IMG/VR virus record: IMGVR_UViG_2609459804_000029
Source: a virus
Lineage: Duplodnaviria > Heunggongvirae > Uroviricota > Caudoviricetes
Length of the DNA stretch: 6,037 nt
Direction: 5' to 3' (one strand)
This document shows positions 61 to 5,201 of the stretch, one piece after another; positions within the stretch are counted from its first letter, which is position 1, and each line of letters begins with the position of its first letter. A program made the translations under genes and the position numbers. The notes beneath the pieces are model-generated. The model was not told where the DNA came from, made no database searches, and saw only the letters and a program-made list of their open reading frames with translations.

Positions 61-1323
61 ATGCCAAAACTTACAGATATTCAGATCCGTGCCTGGATAA
101 AGGCAGACGAGAGGTTTGACGGCAAAGCTGACGGTAACGGCCTGTATCTCTGCTATCCTAAAAATTACACAATGCCCTTCTGGCGATTCCGCTATAAGTT
201 TGCTGGCAAACAACGGGCGATGGTTATCGGGTCATATGCAGAGTTATCACTATCCAGAGCCAGAGAAACAGCAAAGGAACTATCCGCCCGCGTCGCACTT
301 GGGTACGACGTAGCAGCGGAGAAACAGGAGCGTAAAGCCGAAGCACTGGCAAAAATGGAGGCAGAAAAAAACGCCATACGAGTATCAGAGCTTGCCGCCG
401 AATATTTCGAACGCCAGATCCTGCCGCGCTGGAAACATCCCGATATCCTCCGTCGTCGCATCGACAAGGACATAAACCCGCGTATTGGTCATATGAAGGT
501 TGAGGATGTAAAACCACGACACGTTGACGAGATGCTAAAAGCAATTGTTGACCGTGGAGCGCCAACCATAGCAACGGACGTTCTGCGCTGGACGCGTCGC
601 ATATTCGACTACGGGATAAAACGTCATGTGCTGGAGATTAACCCGTGCTCGGCGTTTGAAGTCTCTGATGCTGGTGGCAAGGAGTCATCCCGCGATCGCT
701 GGCTGACCCGTGAAGAGTTAATCCGGTTCTTTCAGGCCATGCGTACCGCAAAGGGATTCAGCCGACAGAACGAGCTAACCTTCAAGTTGCTACTGGCGCT
801 TTGCGTCAGGAAGATGGAGTTGTGCGCCGCCAGATGGGAAGAGTTCGACCTTGATAACGCCGTGTGGCATTTGCCAGAGGAACGCAGCAAAAACGGCGAC
901 CCCATAGATATTCCACTTGTTCCCCCCGTTATTGAATGGCTGAAAGAACTGCGCGTCTTGTCATGCAATAGCGCGTGGGTACTTCCGGCGCGGAAAATGC
1001 AGCACAGGATGATCCCCCACATTCAGGAGAGCACCCTACCCGTTGCACTGCAAAAAGTTCGCGCAGAGATGTCGGAGGTTCCAGATTTCACTATTCACGA
1101 CTTCCGCCGTACAGCACGCACACATTTAGCCGCGCTTGGTGTTGATCCGGTAGTCGCTGAAAGATGCCTCAATCACCGCATCAAGGGAGTCGAGGGCATA
1201 TACAATCGCTATCAGTATTTCGATGAACGGACTTCGGCGCTGGCGAAATGGACCAATCTGTTAGTGTCGCTGGAACGCGGGGAACGCTACAACGTGACAC
1301 CAATCAGAAGGGCCAAAGCATGA
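61..1323 (+). CDS. int: Tyrosine site-specific integrase, P4/CP4-57 (IntA-like) family
   Basis: 420-aa ORF; N-terminus MPKLTDIQIRAWIKA matches the LTD..I.A.K start typical of P4-type integrases; C-terminal HDFRRTARTHL and GIYNRYQY resemble the box II region and catalytic Tyr. RBS-like AGGGA 8 nt upstream of ATG 61. The ORF is open from position 1, so an in-frame start at 1 or upstream cannot be excluded. Confidence 0.9.
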   Translation: MPKLTDIQIRAWIKADERFDGKADGNGLYLCYPKNYTMPFWRFRYKFAGKQRAMVIGSYAELSLSRARETAKELSARVALGYDVAAEKQERKAEALAKMEAEKNAIRVSELAAEYFERQILPRWKHPDILRRRIDKDINPRIGHMKVEDVKPRHVDEMLKAIVDRGAPTIATDVLRWTRRIFDYGIKRHVLEINPCSAFEVSDAGGKESSRDRWLTREELIRFFQAMRTAKGFSRQNELTFKLLLALCVRKMELCAARWEEFDLDNAVWHLPEERSKNGDPIDIPLVPPVIEWLKELRVLSCNSAWVLPARKMQHRMIPHIQESTLPVALQKVRAEMSEVPDFTIHDFRRTARTHLAALGVDPVVAERCLNHRIKGVEGIYNRYQYFDERTSALAKWTNLLVSLERGERYNVTPIRRAKA

Positions 1324-2356: not shown

Positions 2357-2572
2357 ATGACAGCTAACCATCAAGAAGCTATCCCTACCACGGGCTATAT
2401 CCGCCGCTGCAACCTGGCTAAGTTGCTTGATACCAGCGTGTCAACTATCGACCGCTGGGTGCGTATCGGCAAATTACCGAAGCCCACGAAGCTGGGGGAG
2501 AAAAACACCGTATTTAATGCGGTGGAGATCAACCACTGGCTGAACGAGCGCCGCAACAACACCAAGCAGTAA
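2357..2572 (+). CDS. alpA: AlpA-family (phage-type, MerR-like HTH) transcriptional regulator
   Basis: 71 aa; segment IRRCNLAKLLDTSVSTIDRWVRIGKLPKPTKLGEKNTVFNAVEINHWL fits the AlpA pattern (HTH, then G.FP.P.K.G, then E.W). RBS GAGGGA 4 nt before ATG 2357. An in-frame ATG at 2297 is an alternative start but has poor RBS spacing. Confidence 0.8.
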   Translation: MTANHQEAIPTTGYIRRCNLAKLLDTSVSTIDRWVRIGKLPKPTKLGEKNTVFNAVEINHWLNERRNNTKQ

Positions 2573-2639: not shown

Positions 2640-3488
2640 ATGAAACGTCCGAATATGCCCGTACAGGGGCAGGGCTTCGTTCAGCCCGAAGAACTGAGCC
2701 AACAGTATTTCGCCGCAATTATTCCGGTATCACCTGGCATTATTGGCGGATATGAAACGGGCATTGTCAGCGCACGCGCACTGCATAAAGCGCTCGGTGT
2801 AGGCCGTGATTTCACTACCTGGATCAAAGGGCGTATTGAGGAGTACGGATTTAAAAAAGGTGTGGATTTTGAGGTTGTAGAAAATTTGTACTTTGATTCC
2901 CCGAAACGGGGGAGCCAAAGTGTAAATATTGAACAGTTTGATTCTGGCTGGACAACAAAGCGCGGCGGTGATCGCCGCAGTGAAGACTATTTGATCTCCA
3001 CGAACATGGCTAAAGAACTGGCGATGGTCGAACGCACTGAACAGGGCCGCGCAATTCGCCAGTACTTCATCAAATGTGAAGAAGAGCTACACAAGGCAGC
3101 GCCGGAACGTGCCGCAGCTTTGCGCCGTGAACTGAAAGCGCGTGTCACCGTTGCCAGTTTTTTTAAGCCTATGTGCGCTGCGCTGGAGTTGTACCGCGCA
3201 GAGCTGGGAAAAGAGACTCATCAACACCACTACACCACAGAATCAAATATGCTGGCGCGTATCGTGCTGGGCGGCATGACGGCGAAACAATGGGCGCAGG
3301 AGAACGGCATCAAAGGAAAACCGCGTGACAGCATGAGCGTTATGCAGCTTGAACACCTTTCCTACCTTGAGCAGAGCAATATCACGCTGATTGAGTTGGG
3401 TATGACTTACCAGCAGCGAAAAGCCGAATTAATCCGCCTTTCACAGCGCTGGCTGGCCCGTCGCATGGGAGAGCATGAACATGCCTGA
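2640..3488 (+). CDS. Phage antirepressor-like protein (AntA/AntB-type N-terminal domain)
   Basis: 282 aa; N-terminal SARALHKALGVGRDFTTWIKGRIEEYGFKKGVDFEV matches the AntA-domain signature; central STNMAKELAMVERTEQGRAIRQYFIKCEEEL resembles the conserved antirepressor C-terminal core. RBS AGGAG 6 nt before the ATG. Confidence 0.75.
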   Translation: MKRPNMPVQGQGFVQPEELSQQYFAAIIPVSPGIIGGYETGIVSARALHKALGVGRDFTTWIKGRIEEYGFKKGVDFEVVENLYFDSPKRGSQSVNIEQFDSGWTTKRGGDRRSEDYLISTNMAKELAMVERTEQGRAIRQYFIKCEEELHKAAPERAAALRRELKARVTVASFFKPMCAALELYRAELGKETHQHHYTTESNMLARIVLGGMTAKQWAQENGIKGKPRDSMSVMQLEHLSYLEQSNITLIELGMTYQQRKAELIRLSQRWLARRMGEHEHA

Positions 3489-3739
3489 CATCCTCAAACC
3501 TGCTGTCCGGTACATCGACACGGCGGATAAGTTCGCACTACTGAACATCAACCATGCGGATTACATGCGCCATATCGTGAGCCATTTCGCCGCTGAGCGC
3601 ATGAAACACGTTAAGCAATACTTGGGGGAGGTTTTATCAAATTATCGCGCTGGTGGCCCTGTACGGCGCGAATATCCGCATGATGCAGGAATGGCAGGCA
3701 AAACAAAGGCGACCACGAAAGGGTCGCCAGTGGAGATAA
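3475..3739 (+). CDS. Hypothetical small protein, possibly frameshifted at a G5 run (3624-3628); boundaries uncertain
   Basis: ATG 3475 overlaps the end of the antirepressor gene. The N-terminal ~50 aa look protein-like. A +1 frame entered at the G5 run reads RFYQIIALVALYGANIRMMQEWQAKQRRPRKGRQWR with preferred codons and stops at 3737-3739, leaving a clean gap before the - strand gene ending at 3795. The track ORF 3475..4521 beyond ~3795 is S/R/C-rich antisense-like read-through. Confidence 0.25.
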
Positions 3740-3794
3740 AGGAAATCAAGCGCATCACCAACTATGCCATGAGTGTAGCTGGTGGACAAGGCTA

Positions 3795-3983
3795 TCAGCC
3801 TGGCGGGCGATTTTTGGTTGCTTTTAGCCGCCGTGGGTATTTGTCCAGAAATGCCTCAAGCGCAAGTCGTTTTGGTCTGGTGAGAGGAGAGGGATTAAGC
3901 AAAGACTCTCGCTTCTGGCGTGCTTTTTCGCGCTGGCGCTCAATTATGGATAATGCGATTGCCTGTAATTCTTCGTTGGTCAT
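3795..3983 (-). CDS. Hypothetical small protein (62 aa), downstream of the RHH gene on the - strand
   Basis: Helical, charged N-terminus MTNEELQAIALSIIERQREKARQKRE; sits 57 nt after the RHH gene stop in the same orientation. Weak RBS and mixed codon usage in the second half. Confidence 0.4.
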   Translation of the reverse strand: MTNEELQAIALSIIERQREKARQKRESLLNPSPLTRPKRLALEAFLDKYPRRLKATKNRPPG

Positions 3984-4040
3984 TGTGTGCGCCTGTAAAG
4001 CAATGCGCCGGAGTTCCTCACACCACGGCGCTGATAGTGA

Positions 4041-4346
4041 TTATTCTGATTCTTTGGCCTTGCGGCGCTGGAGTTCTTCGCGTGCAACGGTGATAAGCTG
4101 CCCGATTTCCTCCGCTGCCTTGATGCCGATTTGTTCGACATTAGCTAGGGCATCCAGTGAAGACACAAGGGGATTTTCTCCACTTCCTTCTGCCTGGCGC
4201 CTGGCGATCTCACCGCGTACAGCCGTAACTATAAAATTCGCTTTAGTTTCCCCTGGCTGTAGGGATGCCTCAATGCCACTCACTACTTCATGTGGAAATC
4301 TGGCATTCAGTTGCTGTGACTTATTGTTAACAGAACTCCTGGACAT
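4041..4346 (-). CDS. Arc/Mnt-like ribbon-helix-helix transcriptional repressor (101 aa)
   Basis: Strong RBS GGGAGGTG before ATG (complement of 4344-4346). N-terminal LNARFPHEVVSGIEASLQPGETKANFIVTAVRGEI aligns with the Arc motif FNLRWPREVLDLVRKVAEENGRSVNSEIYQRV as I recall it. A ~50-aa helical C-terminal extension is reminiscent of Mnt. Start chosen at MSRSS rather than the upstream in-frame ATG at 4493. Confidence 0.7.
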   Translation of the reverse strand: MSRSSVNNKSQQLNARFPHEVVSGIEASLQPGETKANFIVTAVRGEIARRQAEGSGENPLVSSLDALANVEQIGIKAAEEIGQLITVAREELQRRKAKESE

Positions 4347-4376
4347 GTTTGCACCTCCCATTAATAACGGGATGCA

Positions 4377-4443
4377 GTGTAATACAAAAGTGAATACCAA
4401 AAAAGACTTGAAATGGTATTCACTTAAATGTAATGTGAATACC
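4377..4443. promoter_or_regulatory. Divergent promoter/operator: GTGAATACC at 4390-4398 and 4435-4443, inverted copy GGTATTCAC at 4415-4423, degenerate copy at 4377-4385; candidate rightward promoter TTGAAA (4408-4413), 17-bp spacer, TAATGT (4431-4436)
   Basis: Motifs read directly from sequence; the inverted copy lies in the promoter spacer and the third copy overlaps the -10. Located between the divergent RHH gene and the Icd-like operon. Confidence 0.45.
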
Positions 4444-4481
4444 ACAAGTGCTGATACATGCAATTCAGCAATTGAAACGAC

Positions 4482-4518
4482 GAAGCCCCGCAAGTGTCGT
4501 TACCACTCGCAGGGCTTC
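4482..4518 (+). other. Imperfect hairpin (13 of 15 positions paired, 7-nt loop) in the presumed 5' leader of the rightward operon
   Basis: GAAGCCCCGCAAGTG pairs with CACTCGCAGGGCTTC with two mismatches. No U-tract on either strand, so not a canonical terminator. Confidence 0.3.
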
Positions 4519-4546
4519 TAACCAACAACGTAAACTAGGAGCCGTT

Positions 4547-4744
4547 ATGGTTGCCGTAAATCATATACCACGTCTGGCGCACACACAAACGGCCTTTGTG
4601 TGGCGTTTTCTGGCCCTGAGTGCCGGAGAATCTCAAATCATCAACGTAACCGCCTGGACGGAACTCGAAGCGCGTAACCGTTGCCCGTCAGGTTGCGTTG
4701 CTGTATTCGCCGCCCGTATCCGTCAGGAGGCATCACATGGATAA
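4547..4744 (+). CDS. Small protein, host cell division inhibitor Icd-like family (tentative), copy 1
   Basis: 65 aa; RBS AGGAG 5 nt before ATG 4547; shares FVWRF...ARIRQE with the paralog at 5031..5201. Family name is recalled from P4-like prophage annotations and is uncertain. Confidence 0.55.
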   Translation: MVAVNHIPRLAHTQTAFVWRFLALSAGESQIINVTAWTELEARNRCPSGCVAVFAARIRQEASHG

Positions 4745-5030
4745 AAACATGTTGATCGCCTCTTCTTTCGGGCTGTATGATGCCGGAGTCGCCCACATGG
4801 CGGCCGGGTTTAGCAGCCTGAATACATCTGGCGGACAGCCGCCCACATCCGATAAGCGGTTTTTTTGTGTCCGTAAACCTACCCATACCCGCATTATGGC
4901 GGGGCGTAACGGGGGAGCCTTTGTGCTCGCTGGTTTCCAGATGACCAGTCTGCTAACCCTGTTACGTCTCGCCACCATGTTTAGCAGCGTAGTAGCGAGA
5001 CTCCTTAAAATTCATCTGGGAGCCTTTCAC

Positions 5031-5201
5031 ATGGCTGTATCCGCACGCCCTTACTTTGTCTGGCGCTTTATGCAGTGCCTGACAGACAGCATTGCAATAT
5101 TCACCGTTACCGCTGCCACTGAGCGCGAAGCACGCGCCCGGCTGCCGCACGCACATCTGATTTTTGTCGCCCGTATCCGTCAGGAGGTGACTCATGCTTA
5201 A
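5031..5201 (+). CDS. Small protein, Icd-like family (tentative), copy 2
   Basis: 56 aa MAVSARPYFVWRFMQ...LIFVARIRQEVTHA; RBS CTGGGAG 8 nt before ATG 5031. The frame is open upstream to ATG 4737 (strong RBS CAGGAGG), so a 154-aa fused product 4737..5201 is an alternative. Confidence 0.5.
   Translation: MAVSARPYFVWRFMQCLTDSIAIFTVTAATEREARARLPHAHLIFVARIRQEVTHA

Follow-up and report, generated by a model that had tools for sequence, protein, structure and literature searches.

How a phage-inducible chromosomal island (PICI) of a Gram-negative bacterium is held silent is the question raised by a small gene in IMG/VR virus record IMGVR_UViG_2609459804_000029 (Caudoviricetes). We analysed a 6,037-nt stretch of this record, called the window below, which is the left part of a PICI from Escherichia coli. 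Gram-positive PICIs are silenced by a master repressor, and helper phages inactivate that repressor. A sequence-only reading of the window had proposed that a 101-codon open reading frame (ORF) encodes an Arc/Mnt-like ribbon-helix-helix (RHH) protein, diverging from an Icd-like-to-replication operon and serving as its immunity repressor. The ORF is a real, conserved gene. Its 101-residue product is probably a sequence-specific DNA-binding repressor of this Gram-negative PICI, with the RHH type as the likeliest kind, and the comparisons described here make it most likely the autoregulated candidate repressor of the Icd-like-to-primase operon. Nor is it the sole control: a C4/CI RNA module lies downstream and an eta-like reading frame may allow transcription from upstream to read through.

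The gene belongs to the YlcI/YnfO family. The NF041551 (YlcI_YnfO_N) hidden Markov model (HMM) matches residues 9–50 over the full model length (60.3 bits, cutoff 30; E 1.3e-16), the match to phrog_6522 spans the full length of the protein, and the same gene in E. coli genomes carries the RefSeq label YlcI/YnfO family protein; the Pfam counterpart of the family is DUF3950. There are 126 close homologues in Enterobacterales. Among 1.84 billion cluster representatives, 78 clusters are related, about 15 of them of the ~100-residue form and the others of a 55–65-residue form without the C-terminal tail. The ATG and an AGGAG/GGAGG-like Shine-Dalgarno sequence are kept in most aligned loci, and pN/pS (nonsynonymous relative to synonymous change) of the frame is 0.12–0.39 against four homologues. 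An alternative TTG start at 4493, giving 150 residues, was rejected because homologues are ~101 residues long with a conserved ATG and Shine-Dalgarno sequence. A tblastn search with the long and short forms found zero matches in 50,697 phage records, and no role for YlcI, YnfO or DUF3950 is described in the literature searched. Both the gene itself and its divergence from the Icd-like operon, as first proposed, are borne out, the operon leading to DUF4222 and then primase in relatives.

Candidate operators over back-to-back predicted promoters

Within the window, three exact copies of the 10-mer GTGAATACCA cluster inside 55 bp (4390–4444) upstream of the gene. Two copies (4390–4399 and 4435–4444) lie on the plus strand and one (4414–4423) on the minus strand; the expected number of copies was 0.01, and none of 200 shuffles contained three. 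We refer to the sites as O3, O2 and O1, the last of which extends to a full GTG-N5-CAC element, GTGAATACCAC (Table 1). They coincide with two predicted promoters, PR directed towards the Icd-like operon and PL directed towards the gene. O2 and O1 bracket the −10 element of PR, and the arrangement at PL mirrors that at PR. The region that had been named beforehand for footprinting (4377–4443) does hold candidate operators, the three copies falling over PR and over the gene's own promoter. Both promoters were placed by cross-locus conservation and are predictions; a strict-threshold consensus promoter scan of 4347–4547 returned no site.

The layout is shared by 21 loci from at least 13 genera, comprising E. 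coli, Yersinia, Klebsiella, Enterobacter, Citrobacter-like metagenomes, Serratia, Cronobacter, Raoultella, Pantoea, Erwinia, Photorhabdus, Xenorhabdus and 'Martelella'. Relative to the ATG, O1 lies at about −99, O2 at −74, followed by GTCAAG, O3 at −54, TATAMT and a fourth site, O4, at −29. The GTCAAG anchor is, on the operon strand, the −35 element of TTGAC(A/G)-17-TAnnnT and keeps a fixed position in most loci. The best sites fit GTG-N5-CAC, examples being GTGAATACCAC in the window, GTGTGGCCCAC in the model island EcCICFT073, GTGATATACAC in locus L025 and GTGAAGTTCAC in L021. Such symmetry is as expected for one two-fold-symmetric dimer per predicted site. Sites are spaced 21–25 bp apart, about two helical turns.

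While the layout is fixed, the site sequence changes with the protein, following residues 12 and 14, two variable positions predicted to face outward from the strand. Where residues 12 and 14 are Q/N the site core is GTGAAT; L/T goes with GTGTGTTTC, Q/S with GTGTGATT, S/T with GTGTAAG and I/N with GTGTGCAT. Repeated 6-mers are common only to loci of equal 12/14 class (mean Jaccard index 0.41 versus 0.00; permutation p ~5e-5), and the covariation holds with near-duplicates removed. Loci with the same strand residues share sites across genera, as E. coli L014 does with Photorhabdus/Xenorhabdus, E. coli L017 with both Klebsiella L012 and Cronobacter L028, and Klebsiella L023 with Enterobacter L003; differing 12/14 classes coexist within E. 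coli. Four further loci were compared with an expectation formed from residues 12 and 14 ahead of retrieval, though not logged at that point: the expected ATTCAC/GTGAAT, GTGATT and GTGTGCAT were found in L026, L028 and L027, respectively, and the fourth locus, L025, had a new site class.

The two halves of the protein have separate histories. Elements from E. coli share 91–95% identity with the window protein in the C-domain and 50–54% in the N-domain, and for Yersinia L024 the values are 83% (N-domain) and 72% (C-domain). Together with the covariation, this mosaic indicates that the N-domain and the sites travel together as a specificity cassette. A repressor and its operators would be expected to look like this, with a layout that is kept and sites that co-vary with the residues predicted to read DNA, and fixed architecture with changing site sequence argues for recognition over mere linkage.

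We propose that dimers insert a two-stranded β-ribbon (residues 11–17) into the major groove of each ~11-bp GTG-N5-CAC site. The invariant R16 would read the outer GTG/CAC and the variable residues 12 and 14 the centre. Since O2 and O1 flank the −10 of PR, their occupancy would block PR and keep the Icd-like, DUF4222 and primase operon off. Occupancy of O3, joined by O4 in relatives, would overlap the gene's own promoter and give negative autoregulation. The tail, held by a Gly/Ser linker, would probably bridge dimers two helical turns apart into a higher-order complex.

Probable fold and tail of the protein

The protein can be divided into a putative RHH DNA-binding domain (residues 9–50), the Gly/Ser linker (51–58) and a conserved helical tail (59–100). 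By sequence pattern alone, the N-terminal 50 residues carry an RHH signature, QQLNARF-P-HEVVSGIEAS-LQP-GET-KANFIVTAVRGEIARR. The QQLNARF strand alternates polar and hydrophobic residues and is followed by P18, helix A, a turn at G32-E33-T34 and helix B. Across the family position 15 is A, I or V and position 17 is F, I or V, and the turn is conserved as (G/D)-E-(S/T).

The N-terminal segment had been said to align closely with phage P22 Arc. In a single BLASTP comparison, residues 8–23 matched Arc 5–20 with 7 of 16 identical (E 9e-4); the identity of the Arc query was confirmed through its database matches. The alignment is in register, Q12, N14, R16, P18, E20 and V21 corresponding to Arc Q9, N11, R13, P15, E17 and V18. 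Q9, N11 and R13 are the residues with which Arc contacts bases. Alignment of the family profile by hhalign gave P 0.004 against the Arc sequence and P 0.0019 against the Arc family profile, the latter with a probability of 14% over 25 columns. As far as alignment can tell, the resemblance is real, yet short: the in-register 16-residue match stands, and 'closely' was an overstatement.

Beyond this motif, Q-x-N-x-R-x-P-x-E-V with the three base-contacting residues, the two proteins are alike as small phage-borne regulators with a G-x-S/T turn ahead of helix B, encoded next to a divergent promoter region with repeated symmetric sites. Arc has ~53 residues, and its operator is 21 bp with two adjacent half-sites. 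The window protein differs in being twice as long, with a 50-residue C-terminal domain that Arc lacks, and its candidate sites lie 21–25 bp apart centre to centre and are unrelated in sequence to those of Arc.

HMM comparison with RHH families, the means by which the proposed fold was to be checked, gave sub-threshold matches only: PSK_trans_fac (E 0.018) for the window protein and, among 46 family members, RHH_1 (0.0029), TacA1 (0.0032), CB_ParB_C (2.7e-4) and NikA (0.047). When the PDB sequences were searched, using the protein alone and two profiles, no RHH chain, Arc and Mnt included, was recovered; there was a sub-threshold match to 3no7 (E 0.64). The weak matches to structurally defined DNA-binding families are all of RHH type, and the remaining weak matches are noise from unrelated families. 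An AlphaFold2 monomer model (pLDDT, the predicted local distance difference test score, 76) places helices at residues 19–28 and 35–52, in agreement with helices A and B. The natural tandem-domain relative P0165, modelled as a single-chain stand-in for the dimer, gave a poor model (pLDDT 57), and fold searches were uninformative. Weighing pattern, register and weak matches, we consider it probable that the N-terminal domain adopts the RHH fold.

The tail was originally likened to that of Mnt, whose C-terminal extension is a tetramerisation coiled coil. This likeness did not hold at the sequence level: the tail has no similarity to Mnt, and hhalign, given an approximate Mnt sequence, aligned only 24 N-terminal columns (17–40 with Mnt 8–32; P 0.085). 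The two proteins share the order of an RHH N-domain (predicted here) followed by a helical C-terminal extension, and the same oligomerising role is plausible for the window protein, whose tail differs in its own conserved pattern, L67/I73/G74/A77/I81. AlphaFold2 models residues 59–100 as one long unbroken helix with pLDDT above 90 at its centre. The tail's sole sequence similarity, a weak one, is to helix-hairpin-helix motifs of Hef (E 0.0033), XPF (1.3) and Pol beta. Within residues 58–100 (4044–4220, minus strand), L67, V70, I73, G74, A77/78 and I81 coincide with six of the seven positions of the helix-hairpin-helix consensus L-x2-h-x-G-h-G-x3-A-x2-h, the first Gly of which is replaced by Q, K or E in the family. 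The tail may be a bundle-forming helix or a degenerate helix-hairpin-helix.

Island setting and the eta-like frame

The same divergent position recurs in EcCICFT073. There, an operon running from Icd-like through DUF4222 to primase diverges from the gene for the 59-residue YlcI/YnfO-family protein WP_000190587.1 (NC_004431.1 1380473–1380652; L031 12474–12653). This protein has 45% identity to residues 1–51 of the window protein (E 2e-16) and ends in RRQ-RRKAKEQE, so that it looks like the long form after an in-frame deletion of the tail. Its sites have the same layout, GGTGTGGCCCAC twice, then GTCAAG, TATACT and GTCCCCCAC. A short form also occupies the equivalent position in L029. In nine of nine loci checked, the first divergent gene is Icd-like. 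The window continues after Icd-like 1 with the C4 RNA, Icd-like 2, two small ORFs and DUF4222, and in relatives the operon goes on to primase, SSB and PerC.

The window protein thus shares its divergent position with the EcCICFT073 member of the family and differs from most members, which have 55–65 residues and no tail. The K-12 namesake ylcI (L032 8252–8446; NC_000913.3 580251–580445) is very distant: it lies in prophage DLP12, divergent from the terminase-small-subunit-like nohD, and its product has no detectable pairwise similarity to the N-domain of the window protein. Given this dissimilarity and this neighbour, the family name covers very distant members in differing contexts.

AlpA was described as an activator by the paper that defined these islands; it is needed for EcCICFT073 induction, and its overexpression leads to replication of the island without a helper (PMC6092414). 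Within the literature searched, later papers do not mention the YlcI/YnfO gene. In SaPIs, which are Gram-positive PICIs, the master repressor Stl/Rpr keeps the island quiescent (PMC6092414). The window gene would be comparable by analogy, standing divergently between the int side and the replication side with a presumed silencing role; a sequence relationship to Stl/Rpr was neither found nor expected, and Gram-negative PICIs, unlike the Stl/Rpr islands, are reported to depend on AlpA.

Table 1. Features of the window and their positions
Feature	Position	Strand	Remarks
Integrase gene	61–1323		Followed by an ORF without assignment
AlpA/HTH_17 protein	2357–2572		
AntA-domain protein (ant)	2640–3488		
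Stop-free eta-like frame	3475–4521	+	348 codons; antisense through orf62, RHH gene, operators and promoters
Terminator-like hairpin and T-run	3700–3728	minus	Would end the leftward transcript
orf62	3795–3983	minus	62 residues, basic; co-directional, 57 nt 3' of RHH gene
YlcI/YnfO-family gene (putative RHH)	4041–4346	minus	101 codons and stop; ATG at 4346
Shine-Dalgarno GGGAGG	4354–4359	minus	7 nt 5' of ATG
O4 position of relatives	4366–4387		Degenerate in the window: GTGTAATACAA at 4377–4387, GCATCCCG on minus strand at 4368–4375
PL −10, TACACT	4376–4381	minus	Predicted; consensus scan by position over 21 loci; TATAAT/TATACT in relatives
O3, GTGAATACCA	4390–4399	+	In PL spacer, adjoining PL −35
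PL −35, weak T-run	4399–4404	minus	Predicted
PR −35, TTGAAA	4408–4413	+	TTGAC(A/G) in most relatives
O2, GTGAATACCA	4414–4423	minus	First 10 nt of 17-nt PR spacer
PR −10, TAATGT	4431–4436	+	Placed by cross-locus conservation
O1, GTGAATACCAC	4435–4445	+	Full GTG-N5-CAC; overlaps end of PR −10 and expected transcription start
Leader stem-loop of PR transcript	4482–4518	+	Conserved; GAAGCCC...GGGCUUC, then UAACCA
Icd-like 1	4547–4744	+	First gene of divergent operon; homologous to P4 Kil/Eta C-terminus
ORF of second P4-type module	4698–5201	+	Ends in Icd-like domain 2 (5031–5201)
Promoter-like site, second module	4752–4781		
a1b1/isrK (seqA-like) target	4775–4866		Below gathering score
C4/CI-type antisense RNA	4892–4979		72.7 bits, cutoff 45

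On the other side of the gene, the leftward transcript probably has orf62 as its second gene. It has no family match; in EcCICFT073, L002 and L015 the gene is likewise followed by a small ORF resembling orf62, and orf62 persists in L001, an O157:H7 relative without the RHH gene. A toxin-antitoxin pair was considered and rejected, the gene 3' of the RHH gene being variable or absent and the conserved partner being the divergent operon.

The leader of the PR transcript forms a stem-loop that is present in 20 of 20 aligned loci (fold z −3.4), and three of its seven pairs keep pairing despite two-sided changes; it has no Rfam match. Further on, a terminator-like hairpin and T-run (4582–4602, plus strand) lies within Icd-like 1 over the codons of its conserved FVWRF motif, and L002 has it too. 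It may serve regulated termination, as P4 timm does, or may simply be a coincidence of the coding sequence. Rfam int-alpA RNA RF02996 scores over its gathering score between int and alpA in four islands (L006 9326–9394, L011 9770–9838, L012 9188–9255 and L024 5844–5914) and not in the window.

A stop-free frame of 348 codons runs on the plus strand through orf62, the RHH gene, its candidate operators and both promoters. Its two ends lie 14 nt ahead of the ant stop codon and 25 nt short of the Icd-like ATG; the frame was noted in the window, L003–L029 and L031. In 20 of 21 loci it has no stop anywhere antisense to the RHH gene, for which the chance per locus is 0.15–0.5 given the amino-acid sequence, and stays open through the 171 nt 5' of the RHH ATG in 19 of 21, against 0.6 expected; the other two frames through these 171 nt are always closed. 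In 14 loci the frame carries on in phase into the Icd-like ORF and shares the stop codon of that ORF. Translated, the frame gives a Cys-, Ser- and Arg-rich sequence that matches nothing in Pfam or PHROG, and its pN/pS is 0.29–0.41. The RHH frame has the lower value in every comparison, and dN/dS cannot separate overlapping frames cleanly because third codon positions are shared.

This frame recalls the eta ORF of phage P4, which has 214 residues, overlaps the end of vis (an alpA homologue) and ends in an Icd-like domain (NF033153). According to PMC10111431, which summarises Forti et al. (1999), the CI immunity RNA lies within eta together with an internal promoter that is constitutive, and its full-length product is translated only from the upstream late promoter, this translation preventing termination so that the late transcript reads through. 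The likeness extends to a long ORF after the alpA homologue with an Icd-like end, partly so in the window, where the frame stops 25 nt short. It also extends to an early promoter and immunity determinant inside the ORF with the replication operon downstream (P4 as described in PMC10111431). Unlike in P4, the determinant of the first module would be an opposite-strand protein with DNA operators, not a leader-acting RNA, and P4 has no antisense gene of this kind.

By analogy, the RHH cassette occupies the place of PLE and CI in P4, so it may act as a protein version of P4-type immunity. A true C4/CI homologue is carried by the second module of the window (4698–5201), which lies downstream and is separate; for the RHH module, 11 of the 13 RHH-bearing loci scanned gave no C4 match. 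The window therefore consists of two such modules in tandem, the first of RHH type and the second of RNA type. Neither the RNA module nor the eta-like frame had been noticed in the sequence-only reading.

On induction, the eta-like frame could be transcribed from the alpA side with coupled translation, and this could carry over the cassette. Such read-through would express the operon despite the operators and oppose repressor synthesis head-on. If the eta-like leader in which the cassette is nested antisense is translated, AlpA-linked read-through could in this way silence the repressor and bypass its operators together.

Alternatives and significance

Several results weigh against a repressor of the proposed kind. 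The Pfam Arc model PF03869, which is present in all Arc homologues, has no match to the protein up to E 10, and no Pfam RHH family reaches its cutoff with the window protein, with the 46 members or with ten remote relatives, for which Pfam gives nothing over threshold. The AlphaFold2 monomer model has a low-confidence helix, not a strand, at residues 8–16 (pLDDT 51–60), where the DNA-reading strand is expected. Covariation is no independent proof of recognition, since the predicted sites lie only 30–100 bp from the N-domain codons and recombination would co-transfer both. In the window, O4 is degenerate and the predicted PL is weak. A second, RNA-based immunity module (C4 and target, 4775–4979) lies downstream, and the eta-like frame suggests, by analogy with P4, a read-through route that would bypass the repressor. 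Finally, the close relative L001, whose insertion site lies between yicC and dinD, differs by a natural deletion or insertion (12984–13209 versus window 3984–4787): the RHH gene and sites are missing together with Icd-like 1 and the leader hairpin, and orf62, an isrK-like element and C4 are kept. Since L001 lacks the cassette and has C4, the protein is dispensable for at least some elements.

One alternative we regard as unlikely, though the most serious of those considered. In it the protein binds its sites as a mere local autoregulator or fine-tuner, C4/CI RNA silences the operon as in P4 and P1, and AlpA read-through induces it. The window C4 scores far above its cutoff (Table 1), with an a1b1/isrK-like target 3' of Icd-like 1, and L001 keeps C4 without the cassette; P4 immunity is itself RNA-based and sits inside eta (PMC10111431), and AlpA is both necessary for EcCICFT073 induction and, overexpressed, able to replicate the island helper-free (PMC6092414). 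The distribution of C4 speaks otherwise. C4 is found only in the window, L001 and L002 and is absent at gathering score from 11 of the 13 RHH-bearing loci scanned, where the protein is the only visible regulator at PR. The two modules are therefore separable, with C4 alone in L001 and RHH alone in the 11 loci. Moreover, the two perfect sites flank the −10 of PR and the weaker sites are those at the gene's own promoter, an arrangement at odds with pure autoregulation. Calling the gene 'the' immunity repressor was thus too strong given the C4/CI module, and its divergent position, on which that claim drew, was correct.

It is improbable that the repeats serve another use, as an origin, a partition-like or packaging mark, or for transcription activation. 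Many RHH proteins bind centromeres or are accessory, CB_ParB_C and 3no7 are among the weak matches, the 21–25 bp spacing is unusual for Arc-type operators, and in K-12 DLP12 ylcI adjoins nohD and not an immunity region. The K-12 context says little, because YlcI has no detectable similarity to the N-domain. The sites coincide base for base with the conserved −35 and −10 elements of both promoters in most loci, their positions over the spacer and +1 are typical of repression and not of activation, and the annotations of the surrounding loci include no partition ATPase.

That the 101-codon ORF is an untranslated shadow of the eta-like frame, the only real gene, is highly improbable: the opposite strand is indeed stop-free in nearly all loci and through the adjacent 171 nt, its pN/pS is near that of the RHH frame and gene callers picked the long ORF in L021 and L024, but both frames are able to stay open because third codon positions are shared, start and Shine-Dalgarno sequence are conserved, the curated family HMM is matched far over its cutoff, the RHH frame is protein-like and under lower pN/pS throughout whereas the antisense translation is Cys/Ser/Arg-rich without a family match, the EcCICFT073 short form is as expected from loss of an internal, in-frame segment with the C-terminal RRKAKEQE retained, and the P4 precedent requires eta translation and not a conserved Eta sequence in this stretch.

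The reading of the protein as a repressor of the Icd-like-to-primase operon is therefore the one we carry forward. A broader version, in which YlcI/YnfO-type proteins are the missing master repressor of a large group of Gram-negative PICIs, EcCICFT073 among them, with β-strand and operator cassettes as exchangeable immunity specificities and with nested-antisense, AlpA-linked induction, is offered tentatively and may well prove too wide.

In kind, the protein would be an ordinary RHH-type repressor with operators, and the interest lies in the biology of Gram-negative PICI control. The gene is small, was overlooked and is present in the model island EcCICFT073, and, as Gram-negative PICIs had been believed to have no such repressor, it is a strong, concrete candidate for one. 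The analysis yields base-level predictions of operators and promoters, a specificity code linking residues 12 and 14 to the centre of GTG-N5-CAC, and a P4-like framework in which to place them. If the protein is merely an autoregulator, it is an ordinary RHH regulator; if the repressor reading is true, it would provide the first function for the YlcI/YnfO (DUF3950) family.

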